A stretch of 64,000 nucleotides of DNA, taken from NCBI GenBank assembly GCA_022703645.1, contig JAKLDG010000001.1, positions 338,814-402,813 of the forward strand, read 5' to 3'. The stretch is from Patescibacteria group bacterium (GTDB lineage Bacteria; Patescibacteriota; JACPGU01). The number at the start of each line of letters is the position of its first letter. Position 1 is the first letter of the stretch. Under the pieces are notes generated by a model. The model ran no database searches and was not told the DNA's origin. It saw only the letters and a list, made by a program, of their open reading frames with translations. A program made the translations under genes and the position numbers. Positions 6,579 through 52,500 of this stretch are shown one piece after another.

Positions 6579-7145
6579 CTAAGCTCTTTTTGCAATATTC
6601 TTAGGGTTATTCATATCCCGACCCCACGTTGATGGATTTGATTCTATATAAGAATAAATTTCATCGTAAGATTTTTCATTGCGGATAATGTGTTCATAAT
6701 AGTTGCGTTGCCAGATACGATTTTCAAATGGTATTAATATATTTTGTTTAACCCCATCAATGCATTTTTTCGTTGTTAGTGATTTAAAACGTTGAATTAT
6801 TTGCGGCAATGACAGTTGTTTTTCTGTAGGGGCAAACCCCCGTGTTTGCCCGTTTTTAATTGGGCGGACACAGGGGTCCGCCCCTACGATACAGATAATC
6901 AAATGTATATGATTTGGCATAACAGAAAATATATCTACCTCGATATTTGAATAATACTTTGGGATTTCTTCTATCGTTTGGAAAATTATTATCCCAATAT
7001 CATTCAATCTCATCCCTCCATCAACAATTTCTCCGAACAAACACCCTCTATCTTGTGTACATATTGTAATAAAATAATCTCCGGGTTCGGAATAATCATA
7101 ACCTTTTATTCGTATTGACCTTCTGTTTTTGTTTTCTTTTTACAT
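6579..7145 (-). mobile_element. IS200-like Y1 HuH transposase of the REP-associated (RAYT) type, probably inactivated
   Basis: NHIHLII HuH motif and C-terminal YY catalytic region. The N-terminus (YDYSEPGDYFITICT...LFGEIVDG) matches its paralog at 20.9 kb. The ancestral ATG (7145-7143) is followed immediately by an in-frame TAA; the intact ORF only restarts at TTG 7040. A 66-bp GC-rich palindromic element sits in frame at 6824-6889. Confidence 0.65.
6824..6889. repeat. REPIN-like GC-rich palindromic element (two inverted REP hairpins with GTAG-containing termini), in frame inside the RAYT gene
   Basis: CTGTAGGGGC-[gggcaaac/gtttgccc hairpin]-gtttttaatt-[gggcggac/gtccgccc hairpin]-GCCCCTACGA. 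Far GC-richer than the flanks. On the minus strand it encodes VGADPCVRPIKNGQTRGFAPT. Confidence 0.7.
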
Positions 7146-7160
7146 TAGAACAATTGAGAA

Positions 7161-10070
7161 CTATCTCACAAAATTTACCAATCGATTTTTGACGTAAATT
7201 ATTTTTTTATAGTTTGTTGAAATTTCCTTGAATTTCTCCGTATCTTGAATGACTTTCAATGCGTCTTCCTCGCTCGCATCAAAAGGCATCAGAATATTAC
7301 CGCGGTGTTTGCCGTTTTCTTGAATTACTATTTCAATCATATCTTCTTTTATTTTTTCCGGGTCGTGTTTTGGCCAAGTAAATTTTCCGCTAAAAATACT
7401 TTCTTCAAATCCGAATTGTTGCCAGATTTCCTCCGCGATATGAGGGCAAATAGGAGATAGAAGCAGAATCAAAACCATGTATGGCTGCGGGTAATTATAT
7501 AACAGATCTTTTTTGCTAATTAAAAAGTTGGTAAATTCCATTAATGTCGATACGAGAGTGTTTAAGTGCAGGCGATCCAGATCTTCATTAAATTTCTTGA
7601 TTGTTTTATGTGTCATCACTTCCAGTTCCGTTTCTCCAATTTCAAAAGAATCGGTAATTATTTTTGCCGGATCTTTTTCTTCAACCCGAGGCGCAATTTC
7701 TTGGCCAAGATTCCAGACTTTATTTAGAAATCTCGAAACACCCTCTATTCCTTGGCTGCTCCATGCCGCATCTTGCTCGAAAGGACCGATGAACATTTCA
7801 TAAGCGCGGGCGGTATCAGCACCGTATTTTTCGACAATTTCATTCGGGTTTACTACATTTCCAAGGGATTTACTCATCTTTTTCCCATCTTCTGCTAATA
7901 TCATTCCATGATTAATTCTTTTGGCATAAGGCTCAGAAGTTGGCACAAGCCCAAGATCATGAAAGAAAATATTCCAAAATCTAGAATAAAGCAGATGAAG
8001 CGTGGTATGTTCCGGTCCGCCCTCGTAAATATCCACCGGCATCCAATATTTCAACTTTTCAAAATCAGCGAACTGTTTGTCATTATGAGGATCGATGTAG
8101 CGCAAGAAATACCATGACGAACCTGCCCAGTTCGGCATAGTATCTGTCTCTCTTACAGCAGGTCCATTGCACTTTGGGCAAGTCGTATTTACCCAGTCTG
8201 TAATCTTTGCAAGAGGGGATTGCCCGTCCTCGGTTGGTTCGTAATTTTCCACTTCAGGCAATAGCACAGGCAATTGATCTTCCGGTACAGCAACTTCACC
8301 GCAATTAGGACAATATACAATTGGGATAGGCTCGCCCCAATAATGTTGGCGTGAAAATATCCAGTCGCGCAGATGGTAGGTGGTTATAAAATCACCAAGC
8401 TTCTCATCTTTTAATTTTTGGGTAATCTTTTTTCGAGCTTCCTCAGAGCTTAATCCGGTAAAATCTTGCGAATTGATTAGTACACCATCTCTGGTATACG
8501 CCGGGATTTTCGCGCTCATTTTTTCCTGCCAGATGCCAACCTCGGCATGCGTCATATTAGCATAATTCAATTGCGATTCATCAAGCCAAATCACATCGTG
8601 GTCATCTTTTTCTTTTTGCGAAATATCTTCTTGTGTGTGGTCGACTAATTCAAATAGCACAGCAGTGGTATAAGAAATTCGATTTAAATCTTTGTGATTA
8701 GCAAAATACTCGGTTCGCGTTTGACCGAAAAGAACCCTGTCTAATTTTAAGTTTGTAAACCCAGTTTCTTCGGCAACTTCTCTTTTTGCAGCAGTTACCA
8801 CGTCTTCGCCTTCTTCAATGCCACCCATTGGAAAAGTCGTCCAATCAAAGTTTTTCCATTTAAGTCCAAGATATTTTCCAGTTTTTGGATCGCGAACTAT
8901 GGCATGAATATTTTTTCTTTCAACGGTCTTTTTACCCTCAACTGGCGGGTTTCTTTCATCAATAATATTTGGTACGACTACTTCTTCGATTTTAATTCCA
9001 TATTTAACGGCAAAAGCATAGTCGCGTGTATCGTGAGCGGGAACTGCCATGATAGCGCCTGTACCATAATCTGCAAGCACATAATCAGCAACCCAGACCT
9101 CTACTTTGCGTCCATTTATAGGGTTTATAGCAGTAATACCTTCTAATTTTACGCCCGTCTTTTCCTTATCCTCAACCATTCTTTCAATATTTGACTTTTT
9201 CTTTGATTCATTAATGTATTCCTTGACCTCTTCTAAATTCGAGATTCTATCTTCTAAATTCTTTATGTATCCCGATTCCGGTGCCAAGACAATATATGTA
9301 CAACCAAACAACGTGTCTACCCTAGTAGTGAAAACCTTTATACTAGATTCTAAATTCTTTATTCTAAATTCTATTTCGCTTCCTTCAGATTTTCCTATCC
9401 AGTTTTCCTGCATGAGTTTTACTCTTTCCGGATAATCAACATTTTTTAGCCCTTCGAGTAACTTATCTGCATAAGCTGTAATACGCAACATCCATTGATC
9501 AAGTTCTTTTTTACTTGCGGCAGTTCCGCATCTTTCACATTTTTCATCGATTACTTCTTCATTGGCTAGCCCTATTTTGCAGCTTGGACACCAGTTAATC
9601 GCCATTTTCTTTTTGTAAGCAAGGCCATTTTCATAAAATTTTAGAAAAAACCACTGTGTCCATTCGTAATAAGCCGGATCAGTAGTATCGATTTCGCGAG
9701 ACCAATCAAAAGAATAACCAAGACTTTTTTGTTGTTTCGTAAAATTTGCAATGTTTTGAGCGGTAGCAACCGACGGGTGGATTTTATGCTTTATTGCGTA
9801 GTTTTCAGTGGGCAGACCAAAAGCGTCCCATCCAACCGGAAGCATCACGTTGTAACCCTCGAGCCTTTTCTTGCGCGCAATAATATCAGAAGTAGTCTGA
9901 CCTCGAAGATGCCCCATATGCAGACCATCTCCGGATGGATAATTGAACTCAAACAACATATAGAACTTTGGTTTTTTATCAAAGTCTTTCGCATGATATA
10001 GATCGGGAATCTTTTCCCAGATATCCTGCCATTTTTTTTCGATTTCGTGAGGATTGTAGTTGGTTGACAT
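7161..10070 (-). CDS. leuS: leucyl-tRNA synthetase with an inserted Nudix hydrolase domain
   Basis: HMGH and KMSKS class-I motifs, CP1 editing-domain signatures (TTRVDTLFG, AHDTRDYAF), LeuRS-like termini. About aa 383-515 carry a Nudix box, GGIEEGEDVVTAAKREVAEETG. Confidence 0.9.
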   Translation of the reverse strand: MSTNYNPHEIEKKWQDIWEKIPDLYHAKDFDKKPKFYMLFEFNYPSGDGLHMGHLRGQTTSDIIARKKRLEGYNVMLPVGWDAFGLPTENYAIKHKIHPSVATAQNIANFTKQQKSLGYSFDWSREIDTTDPAYYEWTQWFFLKFYENGLAYKKKMAINWCPSCKIGLANEEVIDEKCERCGTAASKKELDQWMLRITAYADKLLEGLKNVDYPERVKLMQENWIGKSEGSEIEFRIKNLESSIKVFTTRVDTLFGCTYIVLAPESGYIKNLEDRISNLEEVKEYINESKKKSNIERMVEDKEKTGVKLEGITAINPINGRKVEVWVADYVLADYGTGAIMAVPAHDTRDYAFAVKYGIKIEEVVVPNIIDERNPPVEGKKTVERKNIHAIVRDPKTGKYLGLKWKNFDWTTFPMGGIEEGEDVVTAAKREVAEETGFTNLKLDRVLFGQTRTEYFANHKDLNRISYTTAVLFELVDHTQEDISQKEKDDHDVIWLDESQLNYANMTHAEVGIWQEKMSAKIPAYTRDGVLINSQDFTGLSSEEARKKITQKLKDEKLGDFITTYHLRDWIFSRQHYWGEPIPIVYCPNCGEVAVPEDQLPVLLPEVENYEPTEDGQSPLAKITDWVNTTCPKCNGPAVRETDTMPNWAGSSWYFLRYIDPHNDKQFADFEKLKYWMPVDIYEGGPEHTTLHLLYSRFWNIFFHDLGLVPTSEPYAKRINHGMILAEDGKKMSKSLGNVVNPNEIVEKYGADTARAYEMFIGPFEQDAAWSSQGIEGVSRFLNKVWNLGQEIAPRVEEKDPAKIITDSFEIGETELEVMTHKTIKKFNEDLDRLHLNTLVSTLMEFTNFLISKKDLLYNYPQPYMVLILLLSPICPHIAEEIWQQFGFEESIFSGKFTWPKHDPEKIKEDMIEIVIQENGKHRGNILMPFDASEEDALKVIQDTEKFKEISTNYKKIIYVKNRLVNFVR

Positions 10071-13603: not shown

Positions 13604-14923
13604 CTATTTTGTCAACTCGAGTACTACTAAAGCCTCAATATGCGGAGTGCGGGGAAAAAAATTATAGAGCTTCATAAATTTTATATCGTATTTATCTTTG
13701 AGAATACTGATATCGCGGGCTTGTGTGGCGATATTGCATGACAGATAAATTATTTTTTTGGGGGTTACTTCAATCAGTCGATCTAATACTTTATCATGGA
13801 GTCCAGCTCGAGGCGGATCAAATATGATGGTTTTATCTTTTTCAATATAATCAAGAGCTTTTTCAGCAGGGGATAGAGTGGCTTCGCAATTACCGATTTT
13901 ATTTAATCCAATATTTTCTTGCGCAAAACTAACTGCCTCCATATTAGATTCAACTAGTTGGTTCGCGCCTATGGATAAACCAATAGCGCCAACGCCGGAG
14001 TAAAAATCGATAATACGCGAATTACTCGAATTTTGCGAATTTTCGCGAATTGAATCGGAAATGTCTTTTAATGCCATTTCAAAAACGGGAATATTTACTT
14101 GGAAAAATGAATTTATCCCATATTTGAATTGTTTGCCCGCGATTTCCTCTATTAGAAAATCTTGTCCTTTCTGGTATAAAACTTCCGTAATCACAGAAGC
14201 AGGGGACTTGTGTGTCGAATAGTACAGATTAAATCCGATAAATTTTTTATCGAGCATAGGATAGTTATCGAAAGTAAGTTTATCTTTTATAAATAACCCT
14301 GCGACAGTTTCGCCCTTCATATTCGAACGAACGATCAAAGCCTTCATATTGCGCATGGTTAGCGATGTAGAGTTAACCCAATCCAATATCTTTTTTGCGG
14401 TATCGTTTATCGCGTCTGTTGCAAGCTCACAACTTTCGATAGGAATTCTAACCTTTTGTCCGCGTTTGAAAAATGCAAGTGAAATTTTTTCATCCACCCC
14501 TTCAACAAAAGAAAATTCCATTTTATTGCGATAACCGGATTCAACATTGTTGGTTTCGATCTGTAGGGGCAACCCTTGCGGTTGCCCTTTTTTGGCAGGG
14601 GCAAGCCCTGCCCCTACGGATATCCCTCCAATTCGTCGGTATGTTTCGTTCGCGGCTTCTTTCTTCATTTCGTTTTCATAATCAATGTCCATCATTGCCC
14701 AAGCAGAGCATGATAGAAAATGATCTTCATTTGGTTTAATTCGATGGGGCGAAGGTTTGACAAAGTTTACCGCAAGACATTCGTAAATTCCTTTTCGTTT
14801 GTTAATAATTTCCGCTTCAACTTCTTCTCCCGGTAAAGCATTCCAAATAAAATAAGTGTAATCATTCTCATGCGCAATACCCTGGCCGCCATCAACTAAT
14901 TTTTCAATTTTGAGTTTAACCAT
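13604..14923 (-). CDS. RNA (uracil-C5)-methyltransferase, RlmD/TrmA family, carrying an in-frame REPIN-like insertion
   Basis: N-terminal TRAM-like domain; SAM MTase motifs DFYSGVGAIG, FDPPRAG, YLSCNIAT. The element at 14561-14619 encodes VGAGLAPAKKGQPQGLPLQ in frame. Confidence 0.8.
   Translation of the reverse strand: MVKLKIEKLVDGGQGIAHENDYTYFIWNALPGEEVEAEIINKRKGIYECLAVNFVKPSPHRIKPNEDHFLSCSAWAMMDIDYENEMKKEAANETYRRIGGISVGAGLAPAKKGQPQGLPLQIETNNVESGYRNKMEFSFVEGVDEKISLAFFKRGQKVRIPIESCELATDAINDTAKKILDWVNSTSLTMRNMKALIVRSNMKGETVAGLFIKDKLTFDNYPMLDKKFIGFNLYYSTHKSPASVITEVLYQKGQDFLIEEIAGKQFKYGINSFFQVNIPVFEMALKDISDSIRENSQNSSNSRIIDFYSGVGAIGLSIGANQLVESNMEAVSFAQENIGLNKIGNCEATLSPAEKALDYIEKDKTIIFDPPRAGLHDKVLDRLIEVTPKKIIYLSCNIATQARDISILKDKYDIKFMKLYNFFPRTPHIEALVVLELTK
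14561..14619. repeat. REPIN-like GC-rich palindromic element, in frame inside the RNA methyltransferase gene
   Basis: CTGTAGGGGC-[gggcaacc/ggttgccc hairpin]-tttttt-[gcagggg...cccctgc hairpin]-GCCCCTACGG. Same termini and two-hairpin architecture as the element at 6824-6889. Confidence 0.7.
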
Positions 14924-20599: not shown

Positions 20600-21183
20600 G
20601 TGTTGGCAATTATAAATTCATGGTATTTTTCCTTAAAATATTCTTAGGATTATTGCTGTCTCGTTCCCACATTTGCGGATTGGATTCTATGTAACTATAA
20701 ATTTCATCGTACGATTTTTCATTGCGAATGATGTGTTCGTAATAGCCGCGTTGAAAAATGGGGTTGCCTGTTTTGTCTAAGATAATATTTATCTTTTTCG
20801 TTGATTGATATTTAAAATACCCAATTATTTGTCCTAATGTTGGTTTTTTATCCCGTAGGGGCGGGGTCTCCCCGCCCTGAATTAAATTGTTTTTGTTACC
20901 TACAAATATCGTTTTTCTCTTCTAATATCCGCAATATAAAATGAATATGATTTGGCATTATCTGAAAAATATCTAATTTTGTATTTGGGAAATGATTCGG
21001 AATTTCGTACCAACATTTTTCTGCAACATTTCCAATCTTATTTAATTCCATTTTCCCATCCACAATTTCCCCAAACAAACATTCTCTGTCTTTTGTGCAG
21101 ATCGTAACAAAATAATCTCCAGGTTCGGAATAATCATATTCTTTAATCCGTATCGATTTTCTATTTCGTTCGATTTTTGACAT
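20600..21183 (-). pseudogene. degraded IS200-like RAYT transposase paralog (N-terminal 95 aa intact, C-terminal part out of frame)
   Basis: MSKIERNRKSIRIKEYDYSEPGDYFVTICT...MPNHIHFIL aligns with the 6.6-7.1 kb copy. DNA downstream (20600-20850) is highly similar to 6579-6830 but no longer in frame. A GC-rich REP-like hairpin sits at the equivalent position. Confidence 0.6.
20851..20903. repeat. truncated REPIN-like element (single GC hairpin plus GCCCCTACGG terminus) inside the RAYT pseudogene
   Basis: On the minus strand: tgtaggtaac-aaaaacaatttaattc-agggcgggg-aga-ccccgccc-ctacggg. Lacks hairpin 1 and carries the stop codon that ends the ORF. Confidence 0.55.
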
Positions 21184-22343: not shown

Positions 22344-24521
22344 ATGTATTTGTATTTTGCATTTACAGGATTATTTAATGCTATAGTTAGCACTTTATTA
22401 GGTATTTTTGTATTTTTCAATAATTCAAAAAACAATATTAATCGCTCGTTTGCTCTTTTCTGTTTATTTTTTACGATGTGGTCTGCCGCATATATATTTT
22501 GGCCATTATCGCAAAACGCTGAAGGTACACTTTTGTCTTTTAGATTACTGCATATTGGCGCTGCTTATGTTTCTGTTGCTTATTTACATTTTGTTTGTAA
22601 TTTCCTGGATGTATATAAGCAAAAAAAAGTAATAGTTATAATTGGATATATTTTAGCATCTATACTAGTTCCATTTATTTTCACTCCATATTTTATTGCT
22701 GATATGGTTCCAATATTCTCAATGCGCTTTTGGGCAGTTCCTGGGATATTGTACCATTTTTATCTTGTGCACTTTTTTGGATATTTTGCATATTCGTCTT
22801 ATTTGTTATTTAAAAGTTATAAAAAATTATTGGGAGTAAAAAAGGTCCAAATTCTATATATTTTAGTTGGTTTTGTTTTGGCTTTTTTCGGGGGATCAAC
22901 AAACTATTTTTTATGGTATAAAATTAATATACCTCCTTATCTCAATATTCTTGCTTGTTCATTTGTAGTATTTACTGCCTACGCGATTGTAAAGACGCGG
23001 TTTTTAGACATCAAATTCGTTCTTCGTTCCTCTTTTGTTTACATTTCATCTCTTATTACAATTATTATCCCTGCAGTATTAATTAAGTTTATTGTTGGTG
23101 GGGAATCAGTTTTTAAAGCAACTGGATGGATTGATCTAATCATTGTTATTTTTGCCATTGCTGTATTTCCAAAAGTTAAAGAATATTTTTACAAAATCGC
23201 GAATAAGTATTTTTTCTCATCACTCTATGATAGCGCCGAAGTGATTGCAGACCTGTCTGATAAACTGCGATCAACCCTTGATATAAATAAAATTGATGAC
23301 TATATTACGAATGCTTTAATCCAAGCATTTCATTGCAAAGCGATTGGAATTTTGAATTATTCCAGAAGAACCGGGGACTACAACCTTGTCCATAATAAAG
23401 GGTTTGCGTTCAAGGGAAGAAAGAGATTTCTCGGCGATAAGGGATTGCACAAAAAATATGTTATGAAAGATGAACCTTTCCTGACATCCGAAATTAGAGA
23501 TAATCGCAAATATAAAAAGACGGTTTCTGTATTGGAAAAATTTGACGTAGAAGTTTTAACGCCGTTAAACGTTAAAGATAAGACAATCGGCCTTATCGCA
23601 ATCGGAGCAAAAGAATCCGGTGATTCATATAATCAACAGGATATTGAGCTTTTGGGAATTGTCAGCGCGCAGTCGGCAATTGCTATTGAAAACGCTATTT
23701 TATATGAAAAAACACGCAGATTTACAAAAACTCTGCAAGTAAAGGTTGATAATGCAACGGCTCAAATTCGCCACAAGAATGAAGAATTGAAAAAACTCGA
23801 TAAGCTCAAAGACGAATTTATTTCCGTCGCCAGCCATCAGCTGCGAACTCCGCTGACCGCCACGCGCTGGGCGCTGGAATTTCTGATTAAAGATAATAAA
23901 GGAAAACTCAACCGCAAACAGCTTGAGAGCGTTCATGAGCTGGAAGACACAAATTCAAAACTTATAAAACTCGTCAATTCACTTCTGAATGTCTCCCGTA
24001 TTGACGAGGGACGCCTTTCTATCACGCCAGTACCAACTGACATAGTTGCCGTGATGAAAGAAATCATGCATGAATTTGAACCGATTGCGCGCCACAAGAA
24101 TTTGAAAGTTATCACACACTATGATAAATTGCCAAAAATCAAATTTGATCCTGTTGTTATTAATAAAGCGATACATAACTTCGTTTCAAACGCGATAAAA
24201 TATAATAAAGACGAAGGCCGTCTTTGGATAAATGTCGAGAAATATGATAAAGATAATCTGGTTATCAAGGTTCGCGACGAGGGAATCGGAATACCAAAAG
24301 CCGAGCAGGCAAATCTATTTGCGAAATTTTACAGAGCATCTAATGCTGCTACTTCAAATACCGAAGGAACCGGACTTGGACTTTATATTGCCAAAAGCGC
24401 CGTAGAAAGCTCCGGAGGAAAGGTTTGGTTCGAATCAAAAGAAAATGAAGGGACAACTTTCTTTGTGACATTACCACTGAAAGGCAGTAGGGCGAAGAGA
24501 GGAGAAAAGAGCCTGGTCTAA
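22344..24521 (+). CDS. membrane sensor histidine kinase (multi-TM sensor + GAF + HisKA + HATPase)
   Basis: AGGAGGG RBS. About seven N-terminal TM helices, a GAF-like region, H-box SVASHQLRTPLTA, and G-boxes GTGLGLYIAKS. Confidence 0.85.
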   Translation: MYLYFAFTGLFNAIVSTLLGIFVFFNNSKNNINRSFALFCLFFTMWSAAYIFWPLSQNAEGTLLSFRLLHIGAAYVSVAYLHFVCNFLDVYKQKKVIVIIGYILASILVPFIFTPYFIADMVPIFSMRFWAVPGILYHFYLVHFFGYFAYSSYLLFKSYKKLLGVKKVQILYILVGFVLAFFGGSTNYFLWYKINIPPYLNILACSFVVFTAYAIVKTRFLDIKFVLRSSFVYISSLITIIIPAVLIKFIVGGESVFKATGWIDLIIVIFAIAVFPKVKEYFYKIANKYFFSSLYDSAEVIADLSDKLRSTLDINKIDDYITNALIQAFHCKAIGILNYSRRTGDYNLVHNKGFAFKGRKRFLGDKGLHKKYVMKDEPFLTSEIRDNRKYKKTVSVLEKFDVEVLTPLNVKDKTIGLIAIGAKESGDSYNQQDIELLGIVSAQSAIAIENAILYEKTRRFTKTLQVKVDNATAQIRHKNEELKKLDKLKDEFISVASHQLRTPLTATRWALEFLIKDNKGKLNRKQLESVHELEDTNSKLIKLVNSLLNVSRIDEGRLSITPVPTDIVAVMKEIMHEFEPIARHKNLKVITHYDKLPKIKFDPVVINKAIHNFVSNAIKYNKDEGRLWINVEKYDKDNLVIKVRDEGIGIPKAEQANLFAKFYRASNAATSNTEGTGLGLYIAKSAVESSGGKVWFESKENEGTTFFVTLPLKGSRAKRGEKSLV

Positions 24522-24525
24522 AGTA

Positions 24526-24560
24526 AATTAAAAATTAAAAATCAAAATGTAAAATGACAG
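24526..24560. repeat. AT-rich repeat (AAATTAAAAATTAAAAATCAAAATGTAAAATGACA family), left flank of the 4HB gene
   Basis: Matches inverted copies at 24921-24985, 26872-26985, 28725-28765 and 30576-30685. Confidence 0.55.
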
Positions 24561-24919
24561 ATGCAAATTTTAAAAATGAATTTAAGAAAAGATTGTACTC
24601 GTTCGTTTTACGATTAATTAAATATATAAATAGTCTCCCAAGATCACAATCAAACGATGTTATAGGAAAACAACTGTTAAGAAGTGGTACGAGTATATTG
24701 GCTAATTTTATAGAAGCTAATTCAGCCAGCAGTAAAAAAGATTTTACGAACTTTTTTAATCATAGCTTAAAATCTGCCAATGAATCAAAGGTTTGGTTAA
24801 CACTTTTCCGCGATACAAACCCTATAAACAATGAGAATGTTTTTTTGATAAAAGAACTTTGCGAGATTGCAAACATCTTAGCATCAAGTATATTAACTTT
24901 AAAAGGAAAAAAGAAATAA
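24554..24919 (+). CDS. four-helix-bundle protein (23S rRNA intervening-sequence protein family)
   Basis: Family-like helices (GKQLLRSGTSILANFIEANSASSKKDF ... SANESKVWL). Bracketed by inverted AAAATGTAAAATGACA-type repeats; the start codon lies inside the left repeat. Confidence 0.65.
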   Translation: MTDANFKNEFKKRLYSFVLRLIKYINSLPRSQSNDVIGKQLLRSGTSILANFIEANSASSKKDFTNFFNHSLKSANESKVWLTLFRDTNPINNENVFLIKELCEIANILASSILTLKGKKK

Positions 24920-26857: not shown

Positions 26858-26871
26858 CTTTTTTAACTTAA

Positions 26872-26985
26872 ATAAAAAATTAAAAATCAAAGTGCAAAAA
26901 ATTGGGGTTCCTGCGGAATGATATCTAATTTTTAATTTTACATCTGTCATTTTACATTTTGATATTTACATTTTACATTGCATGG
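26872..26985. repeat. AT-rich repeat cluster (AAATTAAAAATCAAAGTG ... TGTCATTTTACATTTTGATATTTACATTTTACATT) upstream of pilB
   Basis: Same family as 24526-24560 and 24921-24985. Confidence 0.55.
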
Positions 26986-27020: not shown

Positions 27021-28724
27021 ATGTTAATTGACGAGAAAAAACTAAAATCTATTCTAATAGACGCTGGAATAGTTGACGAGGCTGCTTGGGAAGATGTGAT
27101 AAAAAACGCTCACAGATTGGAGGTCTCTCCTGAAGATATACTCCGTCAGAAAGACATTATTTCCGGTCATCTTTATTATGAAATATTGGCGAAAGGCTTG
27201 GGAGTAAAATACGTAAACTTGAAGCGCCTCGAGGTTGATGAAGGAGTTCTCGATATTTTCAATGGCGACACTGTTAATAAGTACGGCGCTATTCCATTCG
27301 AGATTTCAAAAGAAAAAGGCTTGGGCAGAGCAAAACTGAAGGTTGCTTTTACCAAACAATGGGACAAGCAGATCTTAAGAACTTTGCAAATTAAAGCAAA
27401 AAGAAAAATCGAGCCTTATTTGACAGACGATATCAGTTTCCGCTCAATATTTGTTTATTACAAAAAAGAAGTCGCCGAAAAACTGAAAGTTCTTATTGAT
27501 AAAAAATCTCACGATCATACACAGTGCGAGGACTGTTTTGATCTTCTTATGGAATACTGCTACTACACCAGACCTTCCGACATTCATGTCGAAGAATTTG
27601 CAAATAGCGGTGTGGTAAAATTCCGTATCGACGGTTTTCTCCATGATGAATTTGAAATGGCGCCGCAATTGATTCAAAAGCTGGTTGAGATAATCAAAAA
27701 ATCTTCTGAAACCACTACCGACGAAGACAATCAAACTGACGACGGAAGATTTAGCGTAGAGGTATTCGATGAAGAATTAGCTTTCCGTGTTTCAATAATA
27801 CCGACTTATTTTGGTGAAAAAGTTTGTCTCAGAGTTCTTGATGATTCCAAACAAAAATTATCTTTGCACGATCTGGGTTTCAACGACTCGGATATTGTGA
27901 TGCTGAAAAAAGAATTCGAAAAACCTTATGGACTAATATTAATCAATGGTCCAACCGGCAGCGGCAAATCTACGACACTTTATTCTGTTTTGAAATTTTT
28001 GAATATTGAAGGCACCAGTATTGCGACAATCGAGGATCCGGTGGAATATCCGATCAAGCATATTAATCAAAGCCAAGTGGATGAGGAAAATGGGTTTACC
28101 TTTTCGCGAGGGTTGAAAGAGCTTCTACGCCAAGATCCTGATATTGTGGTGATTGGCGAAATACGCGACAATGAGACTGCTAGCATCGCCGTAAACGCCG
28201 CTCTGACGGGTCATATAGTGCTATCAACTATTCATTCGAATACTGCCGTAGGGACGATTTCAAGACTGGAGAATATGGGAATTCCAAACTATCTTCTATC
28301 CCCAACGCTCGACTTGGCGATTTCGCAAAGATTGATAAAGAAAATGTGTATTTATTGCCGGGAAAGTTTCACACCGGAGAAAAAATACCTTGATAAATTG
28401 GATCGCGATGTTGGGGTTTACGCATCTCTCGCAAAACTGAAAAAAATGGGGCTGATTAGTTATAAAACCTACAAAGACATTATTTTATTCAAAAACCATG
28501 GCTGTCCAAGATGCGGGGGCAAAGGTTTTACCGGTAGAATCGGTGTATTTGAAATTTTGAATAGCAACAAAGACATTCAAGAAATGATTTTGACCGGTAA
28601 AAGTGAATCACAGATCGCAAAACATGCCGAAAGCCAAGGAATGCTGACGATGTTTGAAGATGGACTTTTGAAGGCTCTAAACGGCATGACAACGATTGAA
28701 GCAGTAATAGATGTGGTCAGGTAA
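27021..28724 (+). CDS. type IV pilus / type II secretion assembly ATPase (PilB/GspE family)
   Basis: Walker A GPTGSGKST; GEIRD; His-box LSTIHSN; tetracysteine CPRCGGKGFTGRIGVFE; N-terminal GSPII_E_N-like domain. Confidence 0.9.
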   Translation: MLIDEKKLKSILIDAGIVDEAAWEDVIKNAHRLEVSPEDILRQKDIISGHLYYEILAKGLGVKYVNLKRLEVDEGVLDIFNGDTVNKYGAIPFEISKEKGLGRAKLKVAFTKQWDKQILRTLQIKAKRKIEPYLTDDISFRSIFVYYKKEVAEKLKVLIDKKSHDHTQCEDCFDLLMEYCYYTRPSDIHVEEFANSGVVKFRIDGFLHDEFEMAPQLIQKLVEIIKKSSETTTDEDNQTDDGRFSVEVFDEELAFRVSIIPTYFGEKVCLRVLDDSKQKLSLHDLGFNDSDIVMLKKEFEKPYGLILINGPTGSGKSTTLYSVLKFLNIEGTSIATIEDPVEYPIKHINQSQVDEENGFTFSRGLKELLRQDPDIVVIGEIRDNETASIAVNAALTGHIVLSTIHSNTAVGTISRLENMGIPNYLLSPTLDLAISQRLIKKMCIYCRESFTPEKKYLDKLDRDVGVYASLAKLKKMGLISYKTYKDIILFKNHGCPRCGGKGFTGRIGVFEILNSNKDIQEMILTGKSESQIAKHAESQGMLTMFEDGLLKALNGMTTIEAVIDVVR

Positions 28725-28897
28725 GGGTCCAATTTTTAATTTTATAATTTTTAATTTTTAAAATTGTCTAAAAAAACACGTACCAAAACCAAAACTTCAA
28801 CCATAACTGGTGTTCAAATGGGGCTTCTCATTTCGACTATTTTTATTATAGTTGGACTTTTTTATGCTGTTTTTAGCTTTTTTCAATAAAATAACAG

Positions 28898-30548: not shown

Positions 30549-30575
30549 AGTTTTATTATTATATCATAAAAACAT

Positions 30576-30685
30576 ATCAAAATGCAAATATCAAAGTGTA
30601 AAATGACAAATTAAAATTAAAAATGTATAATATGCCAAAGGCATACCAAAATTTTACATTTTGATTTTTAAATTTTAAATTTATC
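30576..30685. repeat. palindromic AT-rich repeat unit (GTGTAAAATGACAAATTAAAATTAAAAATG ... CAAAATTTTACATTTTGATTTTTAAATTTT) with a central tatgcc-aaa-ggcata hairpin
   Basis: Both arms match the AAAATGTAAAATGACA family. Lies between divergent genes (the PspC-domain gene and xth). Confidence 0.55.
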
Positions 30686-31450
30686 ATGAAGATTATTTCT
30701 TTCAATATTAACGGCATCAACTCGGCCATCAAATATGGTTTGCGGGATTTTATATCTCTAGAAAATGCCGATATCTACTTGTTCCAAGAAGTAAAAAATT
30801 CCTGGGATACTATTGATGACTCTTTGCGGAAAATTCCGGGTTACGAAACATATTTTTACCAAGCAGCAAAAAAAGGATATTCCGGACTTCTTGCATACGT
30901 GAAAACGAAGAACAAACCAATCGGATACAAGGAGGGTATAGGGTTTAGGGTTATAGACGAACAAGCGAGAGTGCAGACATTAGAATTCCAGGATTATTAT
31001 TTAGTTAATACCTATCTACCACATTCAGGAAGGGAACTTGAGAAACTTCCATTCAAACGTGAAGTAAACGAAAAATTCCTCGAATACTGTGAGTCTTTGA
31101 AAAAGAAAAAGCCACTTATAATTGCAGGGGATCTGAATGTTGCGCACAAAGATATTGATCTCGCCAATCCTCGCGCCAATATGGGAAACGCCGGATTTAC
31201 GACGGATGAGAGAGATTTTTTCGATAAATTCTTATCCCACGGATATATCGATACATTCCGCGAATTTGTAAAAGAAAATGGCCACTATACCTGGTGGAGC
31301 TGGCGGACAGGGGTACGCGAAAGAAATATCGGTTGGCGCATTGATTATTTTCTCGTCTCTGAAAATATTTCAAAACGAGTGAAAAAGAGTTGGATTCTGA
31401 AAGACATTCTCGGATCCGATCATTGCCCGATAGGATTAGAAATCCTGTAG
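30686..31450 (+). CDS. xth: exodeoxyribonuclease III (AP endonuclease)
   Basis: ISFNINGI; YTWWSWRTG ... WRIDYFLVS; GSDHCPI. The stop codon TAG lies inside a CTGTAGGGGC REP-like terminus. Confidence 0.9.
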   Translation: MKIISFNINGINSAIKYGLRDFISLENADIYLFQEVKNSWDTIDDSLRKIPGYETYFYQAAKKGYSGLLAYVKTKNKPIGYKEGIGFRVIDEQARVQTLEFQDYYLVNTYLPHSGRELEKLPFKREVNEKFLEYCESLKKKKPLIIAGDLNVAHKDIDLANPRANMGNAGFTTDERDFFDKFLSHGYIDTFREFVKENGHYTWWSWRTGVRERNIGWRIDYFLVSENISKRVKKSWILKDILGSDHCPIGLEIL

Positions 31451-31500
31451 GGGCGCAAAATTTTAAGCCCTTTTTTTGGGGCGTTATGTGTAGCATTCCT
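31445..31500. repeat. degenerate REPIN-like element (CTGTAGGGGC-gcaaaattttaa-gccc-ttttttt-ggggcg...) at the 3' end of xth
   Basis: Shares the 10-bp 5' terminus and T-rich spacer with the elements at 6824 and 14561; the 3' half has decayed. Confidence 0.45.
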
Positions 31501-31626
31501 ACAAAACCGTTCTTTCTTTGGCTTTTATAACGTAAAATTAACCATGCGCTTTATATTGGACTTTTTTTAAATTTAGCATAGAATAGGAGATAAGAAAACA
31601 AAAAAGCAATAAATCAATAAATCAAA

Positions 31627-36029: not shown

Positions 36030-36707
36030 TTGTTTATAATTATATCCATGAAATTAAAAAGATCATTTTTTAATCGCGATACAAATATAGTTGCGCAAGA
36101 GCTTCTCGGCAAAAAAATTGTCCGGGTTCTGCCTGATGGCAGTAGAATTGAGGCTATTATAACCGAAACCGAAGCTTATCATGGATTTGATGATAAAGCC
36201 TCTCACGCAAGCCGCGGTAAAACTGAAAGGAATAAAGTGATGTTCGATAAGGCAGGGTTGGTTTATGTTTATTTAATCTATGGAATGCACTATTGTTTGA
36301 ACTTTACAACAATGGGAAAAGGGTTTCCAGCAGCAGTACTGATTCGAGCTGTTGCTCTCAAAATCCCAAATCATAAATCCCAATGTCCAAACAAATCTCA
36401 AACCCGAAATTCCAAGTTTAAAAATTTAGATTTTGAAAATTATTTAAAAATTACAAAATTAAAAATTAAAAACTTAACTCAAATAAACGGTCCTGGCAGA
36501 ACCTGTAAAGCGCTCCAAATTGATAAATCTCTTTATGGCGAAGATTTGGTTGCCAGTAATCATATTTGGATCGAACCTGTAGAAACACAGATTCGTGTGT
36601 CTAAAAAAATTATCTCATCAAAACGTATAGGAGTTGATTATGCGGGTGAATGTAAGAACTGGGAATGGAATTATAAAGTAGATGCGAAAGCGATAATATT
36701 GTGCTAA
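36030..36707 (+). CDS. mpg: DNA-3-methyladenine glycosylase (Mpg/AAG family) with an AT-rich in-frame insertion
   Basis: ETEAYHG, ASHASRG, NKVMFDKAGLVYVYLIYGMHYCLN, AVLIRA. A low-complexity insert of about 40 aa (NHKSQCPNKSQTRNSKFKNLDFENYLKITKLKIKNLTQI) lies between conserved blocks. Confidence 0.85.
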   Translation: MFIIISMKLKRSFFNRDTNIVAQELLGKKIVRVLPDGSRIEAIITETEAYHGFDDKASHASRGKTERNKVMFDKAGLVYVYLIYGMHYCLNFTTMGKGFPAAVLIRAVALKIPNHKSQCPNKSQTRNSKFKNLDFENYLKITKLKIKNLTQINGPGRTCKALQIDKSLYGEDLVASNHIWIEPVETQIRVSKKIISSKRIGVDYAGECKNWEWNYKVDAKAIILC

Positions 36708-46500: not shown

Positions 46501-49500
46501 ATGATTGTGGTAAAGAAAAAGAAAATACCTTTAAGACCGTTTTTAATCCTCTTAGTGTTAATAGCTGGGTTTACTTTGAGTTTGGGTTTAAAACCAAATG
46601 AAAAAATAAAAGCGGCTTATTCTAATCCTTGCAAGACAGCTGGCACGTATGCTGGTTATGTAGTTGACGCGAATCTTAATGTTATTATTCCGGCTTACAA
46701 TAATGCTGTGTTTGGTGACACTTTCTATGATAGTACCAGCAAAGAAATTCATTGTAAAAGCATAACGATAGAAACGGGAGCGACTTTAGATATATCGCCA
46801 AAAACTACCGGTGCAAGTAAAACAGGCGGCACAAATTATAGAAGATTGGTTCTTGATGGTGATTTGAATATCGCAAGCGGTGGAACGCTAAATCTATATG
46901 GCGGCAATATATATAATACCGGCGGACTCAATGGCACTGGGATAACAAATGATGGAAAAGGATATGGTATGAATGTTATGGTTGGTGGAAATGTTTTGGT
47001 TGAATCCGGCGGATGGATATCAGCTGATGGCAAAGGGTATGAACATAGTAAGGGGCCGGGAGCAGGTGTGGCTGAACCCGGTTCACAAGGCGCTGCATAT
47101 GGTGGGGCTGGTCCGGATGGAACCAATTGTTATGGGAAATATTACGGTTCGGTTTCTGACCCGATAGAACTCGGCAGCGGCAGTAGTTTGGGAGTAGGAG
47201 GCGGAGTAGTTGATATAACTGCCGCGGGAACAATATTAATTCGCGGCGTAGGCAAAATTACGGCAAACAGCATTGGAGAGGGATCGGGCGGTTCAGTAAG
47301 ACTCAGCGCCAATACTATTAGTAGTACAATTGACGGCGTAAATATACCTTCTATTACAGCAAATGGCGGTAGTGGGTCTTATTACAGTGGCGGCGGCAGA
47401 ATCGCGCTTTTTTATAATTCATCAAATTTTGGCGGTGATATCAAAGCTATTGCTAACGCCTATGGAGGAGCTGGCACTGTATTCAAGAAAAAAAATATCG
47501 AGGCTTATGGTGATTTAATTATTACAAATAATTATCAGGATCATACCGATAACCCTCCGGACTATACTCCATATGCATATACAAAAATTGGCAAAACAAA
47601 AATCGATTCTGGCACATATAAGAATATCACAGTTAATAAAAGAGCAAACGCTATTATTGAATCTAGTAATATAGTAAACATCAATGGTGGTACTTTTGAA
47701 GTAAATAATTCCAAACTTGAAAATAAAGGCACTTTAGCTTCACAGACTTCCGCAGAAAAATTTCTGGCGAAAAATACCGCTCGGATACTTAATAGCGGTA
47801 CAGGGTTATTTAGCCTGTCCGCGAACTCAAACGCTATATTTGACGGCATAGACACTTATTTTGAGAACCAAAATAATATTATCCAAAATTTCGCCAATTT
47901 AACTATCTCTAACGGGGCTGTCATGAGCCATGCCGTCAATGATGCTACCGGTGTGACAAATTGTCTTAGGAATTCAATTGATAATCCAGTTGGCGGCGCG
48001 ATCCCTCCTTGCGAATATAAGGATTGGGGTGATGGCTATGGGAAACATTGGAATCAAAAATATACCTTAAGGATAAATGCCACAAGTGTTAATATTGATA
48101 ACAAAAGTTCGATAGATGTTTCACAAAAGGGATTTCAAACATTACCTGGAACATCAGGTTTTGGGCCGGGAGGGTCAAGTACGGCTTACTCAATCGGTGG
48201 TTACGCGGGAGGTTCTTATGGTGGCAGAGGTGGTAACGATAATACTGGGGGAGTAAGCGCAGATATTTATGGCGACTCGGATGGAGACCTGAATAATCCA
48301 AATGATCTGGGAAGCAGCGGTGATACCGGCTATACTGCCGGAGGATTAGTAAGAATAACAGTTTTGGGCGATATTGTTAATAATGGCTCTATATTATCAA
48401 ATTCAGGTACGGTTTCAAATGGTTTTGCCGGTGGGTCAGGAGGAGGCATAAGATTGGATGCAGACCGGATTCTCGGAGCTGGAAAAATTTCTGCCAACGG
48501 CATGCCCGGAACGATAGATCTTGCGAAAGGCGGCGGAGGAGGCGGAAGGATCGCGATCACATACAAAACCACAAAAGATTTTTATGGTCCAATTACCGCT
48601 TATGGAGGGTCTACTGATGGGGGACCCGGTACGATACTTTTTGCAAACAATAGCTCGGGAGCCTTAATTGATAAAGAACTTGTTATTTCTAATTCAGTTT
48701 TAAACGACAATCCAACCAAAATAGGAGGCGGTACGTATAAAAATATTACCGTAAAGAATACCTCGCCAACTCTTACTGACCTGACTTTAGCCGCAATCGT
48801 TTCTGGACAATCCGTTGTCATGCAAGATGGTGGGAATTTTGAAGTTAACCAAACTAATTTAACTAATAGCGGAACTATTTCTTTATTAGCCGGAACGTCA
48901 AATTTAGTTATAAAGGGAAAATCAAATTTTATTAATATCGGACCTACCGCCTCTCCTGGCATTAACGCGAATAGTACTTCTAAAGTTATTTTGGACAATG
49001 CCAATTTTGAAAATAAGAATAATATTGAACAGAATTTTGGCAATCTTTATATCCAGAATGGAGCAATATTAACGCATACTCAAAATGATTACTTAACGGT
49101 AAATTGCGTGAATACTTCCTGTACCAACCAAGACCTGGGTGATGGCAATGGAATGCATTACAATCAGGCTTATACATTAAGAATACATGCAAACAATGCT
49201 TTAATTGATAAATTTAGCGCTATTAATGTTGATGGCAAGGGCTATGACATGGGTAGAGGACCGGGTAATAATGGGTCTGCTAATTCTGCCGGAAGTTATG
49301 GCGGAGCTGCGTCAAGCGGCGACAGTACCTATGGTTTAGCGGATAACCCTAATGATTTGGGCAGTGGAGGTTATTCCGGTAGTTATGGTGATAATACCGG
49401 CGGCGGTTTAGTAAGAGTTAGGGCAGACGGTAATATAACAGTTGATGGCTTTATTTCTTCGGATACAACATCTGCCGGATCTTTTGACGGCGCTTCAGGA

Positions 49501-52500
49501 GGCGGTATAAAATTAATAGCAAATAGTATTCTTGGCTCCGGTTCTATTTCCGCTAGTTCTAATTTGACAAGCGGGAATATTGGCGGAGGTGGCAGAATAT
49601 CTCTCATAGCTACGCAAAAAAATTACAGCGGCACCGTCTCTGTGAATAGAGGTGGAACTGGAGCGAATTACGGTACTATTTATGATTCTCTGGCTATCCC
49701 TACGACTTATGGTCCGAGCGCAACACCATTAACTTATAATACAAAATTAAGTAATAATACTCCATATATAAAAGCCGATAGTTCAGCAACAACGATAGGT
49801 GTTGATGAAGGCAATGCAGTTAGCACTGGATATACTCCAGATTCTGATACCTCACTTCTTTTGAAAATGGATAACTGGGGAGATGGTCTTATTTATGATT
49901 CTTCCGCAAAATCAATACCTGTTATTAAATATGGCACAACTTCCTTCTCTGATACTGTTTTGAAAACTGGAACGCATTCACTATTATTTAATGGTTCCAC
50001 AGGTCGTTTAATACCTGATGGTACTTTTACATCAAATTTCCAGTATGGCACCGGAGCTTTTACTATTGATACTTGGATTTATCCAAAATCTGTTACGACA
50101 CTTCAAACAATTTATTCTCAAAAAAATAGCGCGACACCAACAACTAATGCATCATCATTACAAATTACTACTACCGGTCAGCTAAAATATACTGAAAATG
50201 GAGTTTCTATTATTTCTCCTGTCAGTACTATAAAACTAGGCAGTGATGTCGGATGGCAACATGTTGCTTTAGTTAGAGATAATTTAGGGGTTGAAAGATT
50301 ATTTTATAATGGTTCCGTAGTAGGAACACAGTCGTCTACATACTCCAAATTCAGCGATGTCGGTATCGGATGTTTATACCAGTCTACTAATACATTATTT
50401 TATAATGGCTATATGGATGAGTTCCGTATCAGTAAAGGAGTGGCGCGCTGGACCTCTGATTTTATTCCATTATCTGATGATGGCAACTGGGAAAAATTAA
50501 ATTTGAGAGCAACAAGGACTAACCCTAGCTCCGATACTAAGCTTTTGCTTCATCTCGATGGAACAAATGGATCAACTACCTATACTGACAGTTCTCCTTC
50601 AAACCATACAATATTGCGTTACAACACACCAACAATTTCCACTAACACTAGTAAATTTGGCGGCGCGTCAGGCGCTTTCCCGAGAGTAACCTCTCCATAC
50701 TTTGATTATATTTATGCTAATGATAATGTTAATGATTGGACTTTTGGCGCGGGTGATTTTACGATAGATTTTTGGGCTAACTTTTCAGATAATGTCAGGC
50801 AAGGTGTTCTTGCCATCGGCTCCGGCGCTTATGCTCCAATTGCTTTTGAAGTAGTAAGCAACAATCTTAACGTCTACATGACTAGTAATGGTAGCAGTTG
50901 GGATATCGCTAGCGGTCAACCAGTTGGCCAAACATTTGGTCCGGTAACACCAGGCGTTTGGGTACATTATGCGCTAACAAGGAATGGAAATACTTTTTAT
51001 CTTTTTGTTAATGGTACTACTGTAAACTCTTTTATGTCATCATTAAGTTTATGGAATAATAGCGGCGCTTTATATATAGGGCAATATTTTGGGTCTGTTA
51101 CAGCCTTTAAGGGCTATCTGGATGAATTTAGAATTATAAAGGGAAGAGCGGCTTGGAGTAATAATTTTACTCCTTCTACAACTCCCTATGAAATTTATGA
51201 TGACCCGTCTTTCAATGGAACGGTAGATATTGGCATAATAGATAATCTTGCAGGTGAATATGTTTTTTCCGGCTGCAACGGAGCGAACTGTACTTTTTCA
51301 GATTCAAAAGTTACAGCGAGATTCATAAATGGTATTGCTAATTTAGCAGTAAAAGTAAAAGACAAAAGAGATGGGCAGATAAAGCATCACGGTTTTTCAG
51401 GGCTAAAAATTAACTCCGTTTCAAATGTATCTTATATAAATAATAATCAAATAACCGGAGCTATCGAAATTCAAGATAGAACCCCAGAAAGATCAATACC
51501 ATCAGGTCCTGCCCCCGCAGGAAGTATTACTAAAGGAACTGCTGGCGCTACTATTTTTCCAATGGGAGCCGGTTTTAGTATTATAAATAATTCCAAAGGA
51601 ACCAGTCAGAGCCAACAAGATTTGGGTGGTAATTTAGTGGTTCGAGGTCCATTAGCATCCGCGCCATATCGTCTTTACCTTGATAAAAACATAATGTATA
51701 AAAGAGGTGATTATTTGAATAGCGACGGAACTATTAGCAGCGTGGCAACAGATTATCAAGTGGTTTGTGTTAATACAGCGGACTATACCCAAACAAAAAT
51801 AAGATGTAATGATGATCTGAGCACCAGCGCTATTCCATCAGGATTGCGAAATTATGGTATATATACATTTAATAAAACTTATAATTTCTATACCCAGAAC
51901 GAAACCTCTAATTATTCAGCGCCTTCAATATCTCAAGTTCTTATACCAGCTAGCAACCCAACTGTGCCTGTTATTTCTCCTTTAACAATAACTCCGACTA
52001 ACGGAAAATTAAATCTCAGCTGGAATAATCCAATTGATAATATCGGGCAAACAAAAACTTTGATCGTTAGAGGTATCGATAGTATTCCTACTTTCGTTCC
52101 AAGTGATGGGACGGATTATAATACCTGGTCAAATACTACTGTAACCGGAGAAGAGATGATCTATGACAGCACTAATGTCGGGGCGGGAAGTGAAGTAAAA
52201 AACTTTGACGATGCCAATGTATTTTTTGGAACCAGATACTGCTATACAATCTATGCTCAATATATTGGTTATATTTATTCGGTAGGGACTTCTGCTTGCA
52301 GCACTCTAACATCAATTATTGATCCGCCAGTCAACCCAACTATCACGATTCAAGGAATGATGATAAATATCGGATGGACAGCGCCACCTTCCGGCAATCC
52401 TGATAATTACCTGATTGTTAGAAAAAAAGGCACAACAGAACCAAACTGGAATCCAACCGGGGAAACTGCTGACTATAATATTGGTGATACGGTTGGCGAT

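Follow-up and report, generated by a model that had tools for sequence, protein, structure and literature searches.

A 64,000-nucleotide stretch of the genome of a Patescibacteria group bacterium (contig JAKLDG010000001.1 of assembly GCA_022703645.1, positions 338,814 to 402,813; hereafter the window) carries at 14561-14619 a short GC-rich element which lies, in frame, within the gene for an RNA (uracil-5)-methyltransferase. The element is very probably a doublet of GTAG-type repetitive extragenic palindromic (REP) hairpins, that is, a REPIN (REP doublet forming hairpins), and a new member of a published kind. The novelty resides in the host group, the Candidate Phyla Radiation (CPR), and in the host gene; the kind of event has been described before. 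The element is made up of two hairpin units and a spacer, and it is contained within an intact open reading frame (ORF), as follows.

14561-14619, minus strand: REP doublet (REPIN), in-frame residues S102-Q121 of the methyltransferase; recognised from its sequence, codons, fold, GC peak and a 55/60 copy in the orthologue P0004
14563-14587, plus strand: REP unit 1, 25 nt, with a GTAG foot, an 8-bp stem GGGCAACC/GGTTGCCC and the 5-nt loop CTTGC
14588-14593, no strand assigned: T6 spacer, AAAAAA (Lys-Lys) in the sense of the gene
14594-14617, minus strand: REP unit 2, 24 nt, inverted, reading GTAGGGGCAGGGCTTGCCCCTGCC on the minus strand, with a stem of 7-9 bp
13604-14923, minus strand: host gene, an intact 439-aa TRAM-containing (uracil-5)-RNA methyltransferase of RlmD/RlmCD type; recognised from PF05958, TIGR00479, PDB relatives, AlphaFold and Foldseek

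The REP doublet and its host enzyme

The element reads CTGTAGGGGCAACCCTTGCGGTTGCCCTTTTTTGGCAGGGGCAAGCCCTGCCCCTACGG and comprises two GC-rich hairpins with GTAG feet, inverted with respect to one another and separated by T6. A GTAG is found at 14563-14566 on the plus strand and at 14617-14614 on the minus strand, each followed immediately by its stem. The stems begin GGGC/GCCC, so that the GT[AG]G foot, the short GC-rich palindrome and the three G-C pairs at the stem base are all present. A palindrome of 20-40 bp is usual for REPs, three basal G-C pairs are the mark of REP-transposase subclass 2.4 in PMC6006769, and two inverted REPs with a short spacer, here of 6 nt, constitute the layout of a REPIN. 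The 9-nt termini, GTAGGGGCA and TGCCCCTAC, are exact inverted repeats. The two units have a common foot (GTAGGGGC...GCCC) and loop, and differ at four upper stem pairs, where every difference is fully compensated. The reverse complement of unit 1 gives the 24-mer GGCAACCGCAAGGGTTGCCCCTAC.

Folded as single-stranded DNA, the element gives a pair of hairpins which the termini close, with an energy of -19.8 kcal/mol that none of 200 shuffled sequences equals (z = -3.9); for the sense RNA the folding energy is -36.3 kcal/mol (z = -2.75). In 50-nt sliding windows the GC content peaks here at 0.66, against a mean of 0.376 (sd 0.095) for the window, placing the element in the top 35 of 63,951 such windows. 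A first-pass annotation had described a 59-bp GC-rich cassette with two hairpins and had proposed a sliding-window comparison of GC content; the anatomy, the fold and the GC peak all bear it out. Its statement that the frame is preserved is correct for the twenty codons S102-Q121 (14620-14561), which translate as SVGAGLAPAKKGQPQGLPLQ. It does not hold for the cassette as delimited, since 59 is not a multiple of 3 and the frame-keeping unit is 60 nt, or 57 nt plus flanks.

Other identities for the element were considered and rejected. No direct repeat flanks the 9-nt terminal inverted repeats (flanks ...gatct / gata...) and no target-site duplication is seen in comparison with empty orthologues; a miniature inverted-repeat transposable element was set aside for want of this duplication. 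A self-splicing intron, an intein or a translational bypass element was dismissed because an Rfam scan of the whole window returned no family at the gathering score, the 20 residues hold no intein blocks and the frame is continuous. Finally, the 59-bp element is GTAG-tagged, and is neither CGTC-tagged nor a longer palindrome as Rickettsia palindromic elements are.

The host protein matches PF05958 (tRNA/rRNA uracil-5-methyltransferase) with E = 2e-19 and 70.4 bits against a cut-off of 23; it matches the Pfam TRAM family weakly (18.7 bits, where the cut-off is 21). The best NCBIfam model, TIGR00479 (rumA), scores 170.7 bits, under the equivalog cut-off of 183.55, so that the substrate may be U1939, U747 or tRNA U54. 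The best solved relatives are RlmCD (5xj1, E = 2e-30) and RumA (1uwv). An AlphaFold model based on 119 homologues has a mean predicted local distance difference test (pLDDT) score of 94.4 and a predicted template modelling (pTM) score of 0.91. Foldseek superposes it on RlmCD (5zq0) with a template modelling (TM) score of 0.86 and on RumA (2bh2) with one of 0.79, and the three-domain fold of TRAM, central and catalytic domains is present. The family to which the gene was first assigned is thereby upheld. The residues that are invariant in the family alignment (D306, G310, G312, D369-P371, R372 and C396) are all retained, as is the nearly invariant E430; the S-adenosylmethionine (SAM) motif I is DFYSGVG at residues 306-312, and DPPR is found at 369-372. 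With these invariants kept and the fold confidently predicted, the rest of the enzyme looks functional. In place of the 4Fe-4S cysteines of RumA (C81, C87, C90 and C161 in the numbering of PMC5614603), the corresponding stretch of the query has a single Cys (FLSCSAW). RlmCD resembles the query in this respect, no iron-sulfur cluster being described for it (PMC5614603). Judged by its sequence, then, the host enzyme is a non-iron-sulfur RlmD/RlmCD-like 5-methyluridine (m5U) RNA methyltransferase.

It might be supposed that the insertion has inactivated the gene, leaving a decaying pseudogene which is still open by chance. Methylation at m5U1939 is dispensable in E. coli, and a second low-complexity insert is present at residues 295-303, both of which would be in keeping with such a loss. 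This explanation is nevertheless very improbable. The 439-codon frame is open, every family invariant is in place and the mean pLDDT of the model is high. Furthermore, the protein is 78% identical to that of the sister orthologue P0002 whilst third codon positions are only 52% identical, a signature of purifying selection. The identical protein is found on 8 contigs, up to 867 kb in length, from ENA, JGI and Logan assemblies of a Patescibacteria metagenome-assembled genome, which argues against a pseudogene and, since these assemblies are independent, rules out an assembly artefact.

The insert occupies residues 102-121 of 439, in the N-terminal quarter of the protein. It aligns with residues ~103-121 of RlmCD and so with the inter-domain region (64-127) which joins the TRAM domain (1-63) to the central domain (128-261) in that enzyme (PMC5614603). 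It follows a helix (80-97) and precedes the strand leading to the conserved YRNK motif, the YRNK strand being that which opens the central domain. Thus the placement between TRAM domain and SAM motif I was correct, but the element is inter-domain and not in the catalytic half as had been stated. In the AlphaFold model the block means fall to 60-62 for residues 101-120, with pLDDT below 50 at 105-109, as against 93 or more almost everywhere else; the only other poorly predicted stretch is 291-300. The Gly/Pro-rich surface loop that had been anticipated thus appears as a Gly/Pro/Ala-rich stretch of low confidence within a very confident model. As modelled, the element is a 20-residue floppy loop of Gly, Pro, Ala and Gln in the linker that connects the TRAM domain to the central domain.

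A second lineage-specific insert (14015-14047, residues N295-R303) immediately precedes SAM motif I and consists of an AATTCG-repeat stretch, CGCGAAAATTCGCAAAATTCGAGTAATTCGCG. It encodes NSQNSSNSR with a pLDDT of ~75, and no further copies of it were found in the window. At this site P0004 has a REPIN, P0002 a single, decayed REP, P0011 another palindrome (LPAGRQGS) and P0009 an NS-rich stretch of similar kind.

Spread of the element and the associated transposases

In a collection of one-genome-per-species contigs, over 119 stretches from unrelated genomes contain an exact match to the 24-mer given by unit 1. The hosts of this 24-mer include Chloroflexi, Bacteroidota, Planctomycetes, Deltaproteobacteria, Acidobacteria, Cloacimonadota, Clostridia and a cultured Chlorobaculum (Chlorobi). 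In several phyla it is often preceded by an identical partner hairpin (unit 2), and the full doublet is present in 52 metagenome stretches. Among the low-GC stretches bearing the doublet, six have it inside genes for REP-associated tyrosine transposases (RAYTs), straight after the HUH motif. In others it is read in frame within Pfam-confirmed genes for chorismate synthase, an aspartate-oxidase-type FAD-binding oxidase, a Ser/Thr kinase, an RsmE-type methyltransferase, a PUA-SAM methyltransferase (just before motif I), a poly(A) polymerase/CCA-type nucleotidyltransferase, a prolidase-like peptidase and HrcA. These hosts come from eight metagenome contigs with GC contents of 0.39-0.44 (L132, L144, L147, L155, L163, L164, L170 and L180), and the in-frame evidence is confined to such low-GC contigs, as open frames arise by chance in high-GC genomes. 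A count of the 24-mer in long stop-free frames of genome contigs was discarded for the same reason, being uninformative for high-GC genomes.

The translation of the doublet varies with frame and strand: VGAGLAPA...GQPQGLPLQ, CRGRACPCP...ATARVAPT, VGATLAVA...RAGASPAPT, VGATLAVAQKGQGQALPL and CRGNPCGCP... are all encountered, and at least five frame/strand combinations are used in the other host genes. The frame which reads the TAG of G-TAG as a stop was never seen among the in-frame hosts. As the doublet is read in different frames and from both strands, it must be the hairpin DNA that is constrained and not the peptide, which is itself probably functionless. A search of a protein database with a 40-residue concatenate of REP-coded peptide found no candidate sharing words with it.

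A close copy is also present within an orthologue of the host gene. In P0004, whose protein is 67% identical to that of the query, a sequence identical at 55 of 60 positions (92%), including the TCC 5' of the element, is found just before SAM motif I, whereas identity between the two genes is 69% over their length and 48% for third codon positions. To judge from its relatives at other positions and in other genes, the family is, or was, mobile.

Candidates for the mobilising enzyme are encoded within the window itself, which also holds a degenerate relative of the element.

6579-7139, minus strand: copy 1 of a RAYT-like Y1 transposase frame, in which the HUH motif (MPNHIHLII) is followed straight away by a REPIN at 6824-6889; recognised from PF01797 and NF047646
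20600-21183, minus strand: RAYT-like copy 2, frameshifted in the internal REP region, with an intact REP at 20855-20878; recognised from NF047646 and its translation
31447-31505, plus strand: degenerate REPIN-like element directly after the exodeoxyribonuclease III gene (30686-31450)

The TAG in the GTAG of the degenerate element (31448-31450) is the stop codon of the exodeoxyribonuclease III gene. NF047646 (REP-associated tyrosine transposase) is the best family for the two transposase frames, with 54 and 22 bits, below the 80-bit cut-off. Copy 1 reads ...HLIICI[VGADPCVRPIKNGQTRGFAPT]EKQLSLPQIIQRFKS, and its internal element has the termini (GTAGGGGC/GCCCCTAC) and the two-hairpin layout of 14561-14619, as the first-pass annotation had recognised. 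In copy 1 the codon straight after the ATG (codon 2) is TAA, and no other start codon occurs before L37. In copy 2 the partner hairpin of the REP at 20855-20878 is now no more than decayed, AT-rich sequence. Contig L167 has a close relative which is intact and which contains the very doublet of the query.

A full HMMER search returned 25,704 representative RAYT relatives at E <= 0.001. All but a few of the 60 that were fetched have a variable-length REP-coded segment at the place of the internal REP, with a VGA-like start and an APT-like end. The internal REP is thus no separate accident but a hallmark of this transposase subfamily, TnpA-REP subclass 2.4 (Quentin et al. 2018, PMC6006769), which corresponds to group 4 in the RAYT scheme of Bertels et al. 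2017. The window's RAYTs are assigned to the subclass by common traits and not by phylogeny. In PMC6006769 the subclass is described with a 5' GT[AG]G, three consecutive basal G-C pairs and 'double-foot' forms, with REPs in frame in the transposase gene between the HUH and Tyr motifs, and with a patchy spread across many phyla, all as observed here. Internal REPs are shown by the two RAYT-like genes of the window, both of which look disrupted, and by nearly all of the 60 fetched homologues. Insertions in unrelated genes are mentioned in that paper by citation only.

From these observations a mechanism may be proposed. A RAYT acting on single-stranded DNA would make copies of the REP, recognising the hairpin and its GTAG foot, cutting and joining; we infer these steps because they are established for IS200/IS605 transposases and for E. 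coli TnpA-REP. As the CPR genome is gene-dense, coding loops would be among the few landing places. Selection would then purge insertions which shift the frame, are read in the TAG frame or fall in structured regions, so that the survivors would be those in permissive surface loops.

Filled and empty orthologues of the methyltransferase gene

Among the 119 homologues, an insertion at the site of the element is confined to the query and P0004, with a shorter one in P0002, and 116 of the 119 lack the segment. The first-pass annotation had named a conserved segment in homologues from unrelated lineages as grounds for abandoning an insertion; the alignment contains none, and at the DNA level the three inserts are all REPs and all different. 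The sister orthologue P0002 (78% identity) has a single perfect hairpin, GTAGGGGCGATTCATGAATCGCCC, at the same codon, P0004 has a different doublet, GTAGGGGCAGACCCCTGTGTCTGCCC...GGGCGAACACGGGGGTTCGCCCCTAC, and in P0003, P0006, P0007 and P0012 six ordinary codons are found instead. Neighbour joining groups the genes as ((query, P0002), P0003) and puts P0004 in a separate subclade, next to P0006 and P0007, which are empty; the site has therefore been occupied at least twice. To judge from the sequences, it may have been filled since the common ancestor of the query and P0002. The suggestion that the insertion is recent is accordingly weakened by the different single REP at the same codon of P0002.

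Short inserts are also found elsewhere in this family. Those of homologues P0036, P0049, P0059, P0082 and P0117 (PLTPLLQGEGK, HPPTPSLENRGGDHG, NCLPLSKGEMEEGVA) look, from their sequences, like translations of another GC-rich palindromic repeat family.

The empty orthologues raise the question of whether the loop evolved in place and resembles a REP by coincidence. The flanking VG and LQ recall the ancestral D-V-G-D-L-Q, and loop length varies among the homologues, as would be expected of such a loop. It is scarcely credible, however, that coincidence could account for a 92%-identical 60-mer at another site of P0004 when third-position identity is 48%, for the exact 24-mer in more than 119 unrelated genomes, for a local GC content ~3 sd above the window mean and for the absence of the segment from 116 of 119 homologues.

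REPs are not restricted to one site of this gene. A census covered eleven loci totalling 194.6 kb, of which the methyltransferase ORF makes up 7.4%. With a relaxed pattern (one mismatch in GTAGGGG plus any hairpin), 14 of 33 matches fell within the ORF (binomial p = 3e-8), or 13 of 25 with the window excluded (p = 1.6e-7). Because the relaxed pattern also picks out AT-rich false positives, within the gene as well as beyond it, a stringent count was made by hand: ~12 of ~18 REP sites are in the methyltransferase ORF. Shared ancestry, and the choice of loci around the methyltransferase gene, weaken these enrichment statistics. The sites recur in orthologues, after RIGGI, after FIKDK-L, before motif I and after LNK. 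P0004 (L006 594-1985) has five REP units at three sites, P0002 (L004 10001-11284) has three single REPs, and P0009, P0010, P0013 and P0011 (on loci L181, L182, L183 and L184) have one or two units each at the recurring positions; the genes flanking the methyltransferase orthologues have very few. In every case far fewer codons are gained, on balance, than the length of the element would supply. For example, the 24-nt REP after LNK in P0002 (site 4) adds 1 codon and overlays the ancestral NCEA codons.

These observations suggest, tentatively, that the m5U methyltransferase gene of this CPR clade is a preferred landing place for GTAG REPs, which would enter at four or five positions resembling REP ends (GTWGG...CTWCAR) and overwrite the codons there. 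On such a scheme entry would be sequence-directed, guided by a RAYT or by conversion from other REPs, as opposed to random insertion followed by selection. Its attractions are the three different REPs at an identical codon in the query, P0002 and P0004, where the tree requires at least two gains, the share of REP sites (~12 of ~18 stringent, 14 of 33 relaxed) held by a small fraction of the DNA surveyed, and a codon gain always well below element length. Despite this we regard site-directed replacement as unlikely. The number of events is inflated by shared ancestry, the loci were picked around this gene and no target motif can be defined. Moreover, trimming of the loop after insertion, with relaxed constraint on a dispensable enzyme, would look alike, and such trimming could explain both the concentration of REPs in the gene and the small gain in codons.

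The persistence of the hairpins invites another explanation, namely that the element has been co-opted at the nucleic-acid level and is kept by selection, either as mRNA hairpins tuning translation or stability, or as a block to antisense transcription formed by a hairpin and T6 on the plus strand. Both hairpins are perfect and show no decay towards AT, even though the site seems to have been filled since before the query and P0002 diverged. REPs with intact stems persist at the same four sites of the gene in several orthologues, and TTTTTT does follow unit 1 on the plus strand. Yet a terminator scan raised no flag at this hairpin and T6, and on the sense strand the run is of A and not of T. 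The close orthologues P0003, P0006, P0007 and P0012 are without any element at the site, the doublet is present in unrelated genes in either orientation, and there is no Rfam match. Co-option is thus distinctly improbable.

Several observations weigh against the interpretation of the element as an inserted REPIN, which we nonetheless prefer. The net gain at the site relative to the empty orthologues is 14 codons for an element of 55-59 nt, and the REP-coded end residues VG...LQ coincide with the ancestral D-V-G-D-L-Q; a simple cut-and-paste insertion does not obviously explain so small a gain. No exact insertion junction or target motif is definable from the filled and empty orthologues, because these are too diverged (63-78% protein identity) and their loops vary in length. 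The high-copy population within a genome that is typical of classical REPINs is not apparent: only four REP sites are visible in the 64 kb, and their upper stems are all different. Both RAYT copies of the window look defective, so that a mobilising enzyme in this genome is only putative. Finally, read-through of the element and activity of the enzyme are predictions. 

Neighbouring features, known systems and significance

Some other features of the window may be recorded here. In the leucyl-tRNA synthetase (7161-10070, minus strand, 969 aa) the editing domain is followed by an inserted NUDIX domain (PF00293, residues 407-506). This insertion is shared by the orthologue on L005 (983 aa) and is missing from those on L009, L182, L183 and L184 (830-910 aa). 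A family of AT-rich direct and inverted repeats (e.g. AAATTAAAAATTAAAAATCAAAATGTAAAATG) occupies intergenic gaps around genes at 24.5-30.7 kb. A 23S_rRNA_IVP-type four-helix-bundle gene at 24554-24919 is among the genes near these repeats. A giant ORF of 3677 aa extends over 46501-57534 on the plus strand. The repeats are positioned as follows.

24519-24575: AT-rich repeats
26864-26979: AT-rich repeats
28719-28782: AT-rich repeats
30568-30686: AT-rich repeats
36443-36487: AT-rich repeats

An extragenic location is among the marks of REPs and REPINs, and the doublet, lying inside an ORF, departs from this; as exceptions have been published, it may still be counted among them. Intragenic GTAG REPs read in frame, with dimers encoding 20-30 residues, have been described, notably in Opitutus terrae (Di Nocera, De Gregorio & Rocco 2013, PMC3733652). 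Like the present element they have a GTAG foot and a short GC-rich stem-loop, are often inverted dimers and are in frame in genes for known proteins; their hosts include RNA-binding and RNA-modifying enzymes. The two differ in that the copy number here is low in the visible 64 kb and the upper stems vary. That survey lists GTAG repeats for Proteobacteria, Cyanobacteria, Chloroflexi and the Planctomycetes-Verrucomicrobia-Chlamydiae (PVC) superphylum, and does not extend to the CPR. 'RumA' and 'uracil' were looked for in its supplementary files and not found, and a literature search for in-frame REPs in CPR bacteria turned up nothing relevant.

A number of parallels can be drawn with the Rickettsia palindromic elements (RPEs) as these are presented in PMC3733652. 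They too are in-frame palindromic selfish DNA, carried by functional proteins in tolerated surface loops in a small, gene-dense genome. In that presentation, by contrast, RPE-4 and RPE-6 are CGTC-tagged and RPE-1 is a longer palindromic insertion, where the element here is GTAG-tagged; no sequence relation to it is apparent, and no RAYT link is described there for RPEs. The classical REPINs of Pseudomonas and Enterobacteria (Bertels & Rainey 2011, PMC3116915) also consist of two inverted REPs with a short spacer and are thought to be mobilised in trans by a RAYT. They differ in being extragenic, in numbering hundreds of near-identical copies in each genome and in their ties to RAYTs of groups 2 and 3, which are single-copy, whilst the present element is intragenic, with few visible copies and variable stems.

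The doublet thus provides a clear and thoroughly documented example of selfish hairpin DNA which has come to be carried as protein sequence, in the ultra-small and gene-dense genome of a member of the CPR, a group for which GTAG REPs are not catalogued in the literature found. It also links such an element to a RAYT subfamily which bears REPs inside its own gene. For the methyltransferase family, the insert marks a permissive loop in RlmD/RlmCD-type enzymes. In CPR proteins, REP-coded peptides such as VGAGLAPA, GQPQGLPLQ, VGATLAVA and RAGASPAPT give rise to spurious 'insertions' and to loops predicted with low confidence. The concentration of REPs in one gene and the replacement of codons, if true, would bear on how REPs choose and enter their targets.

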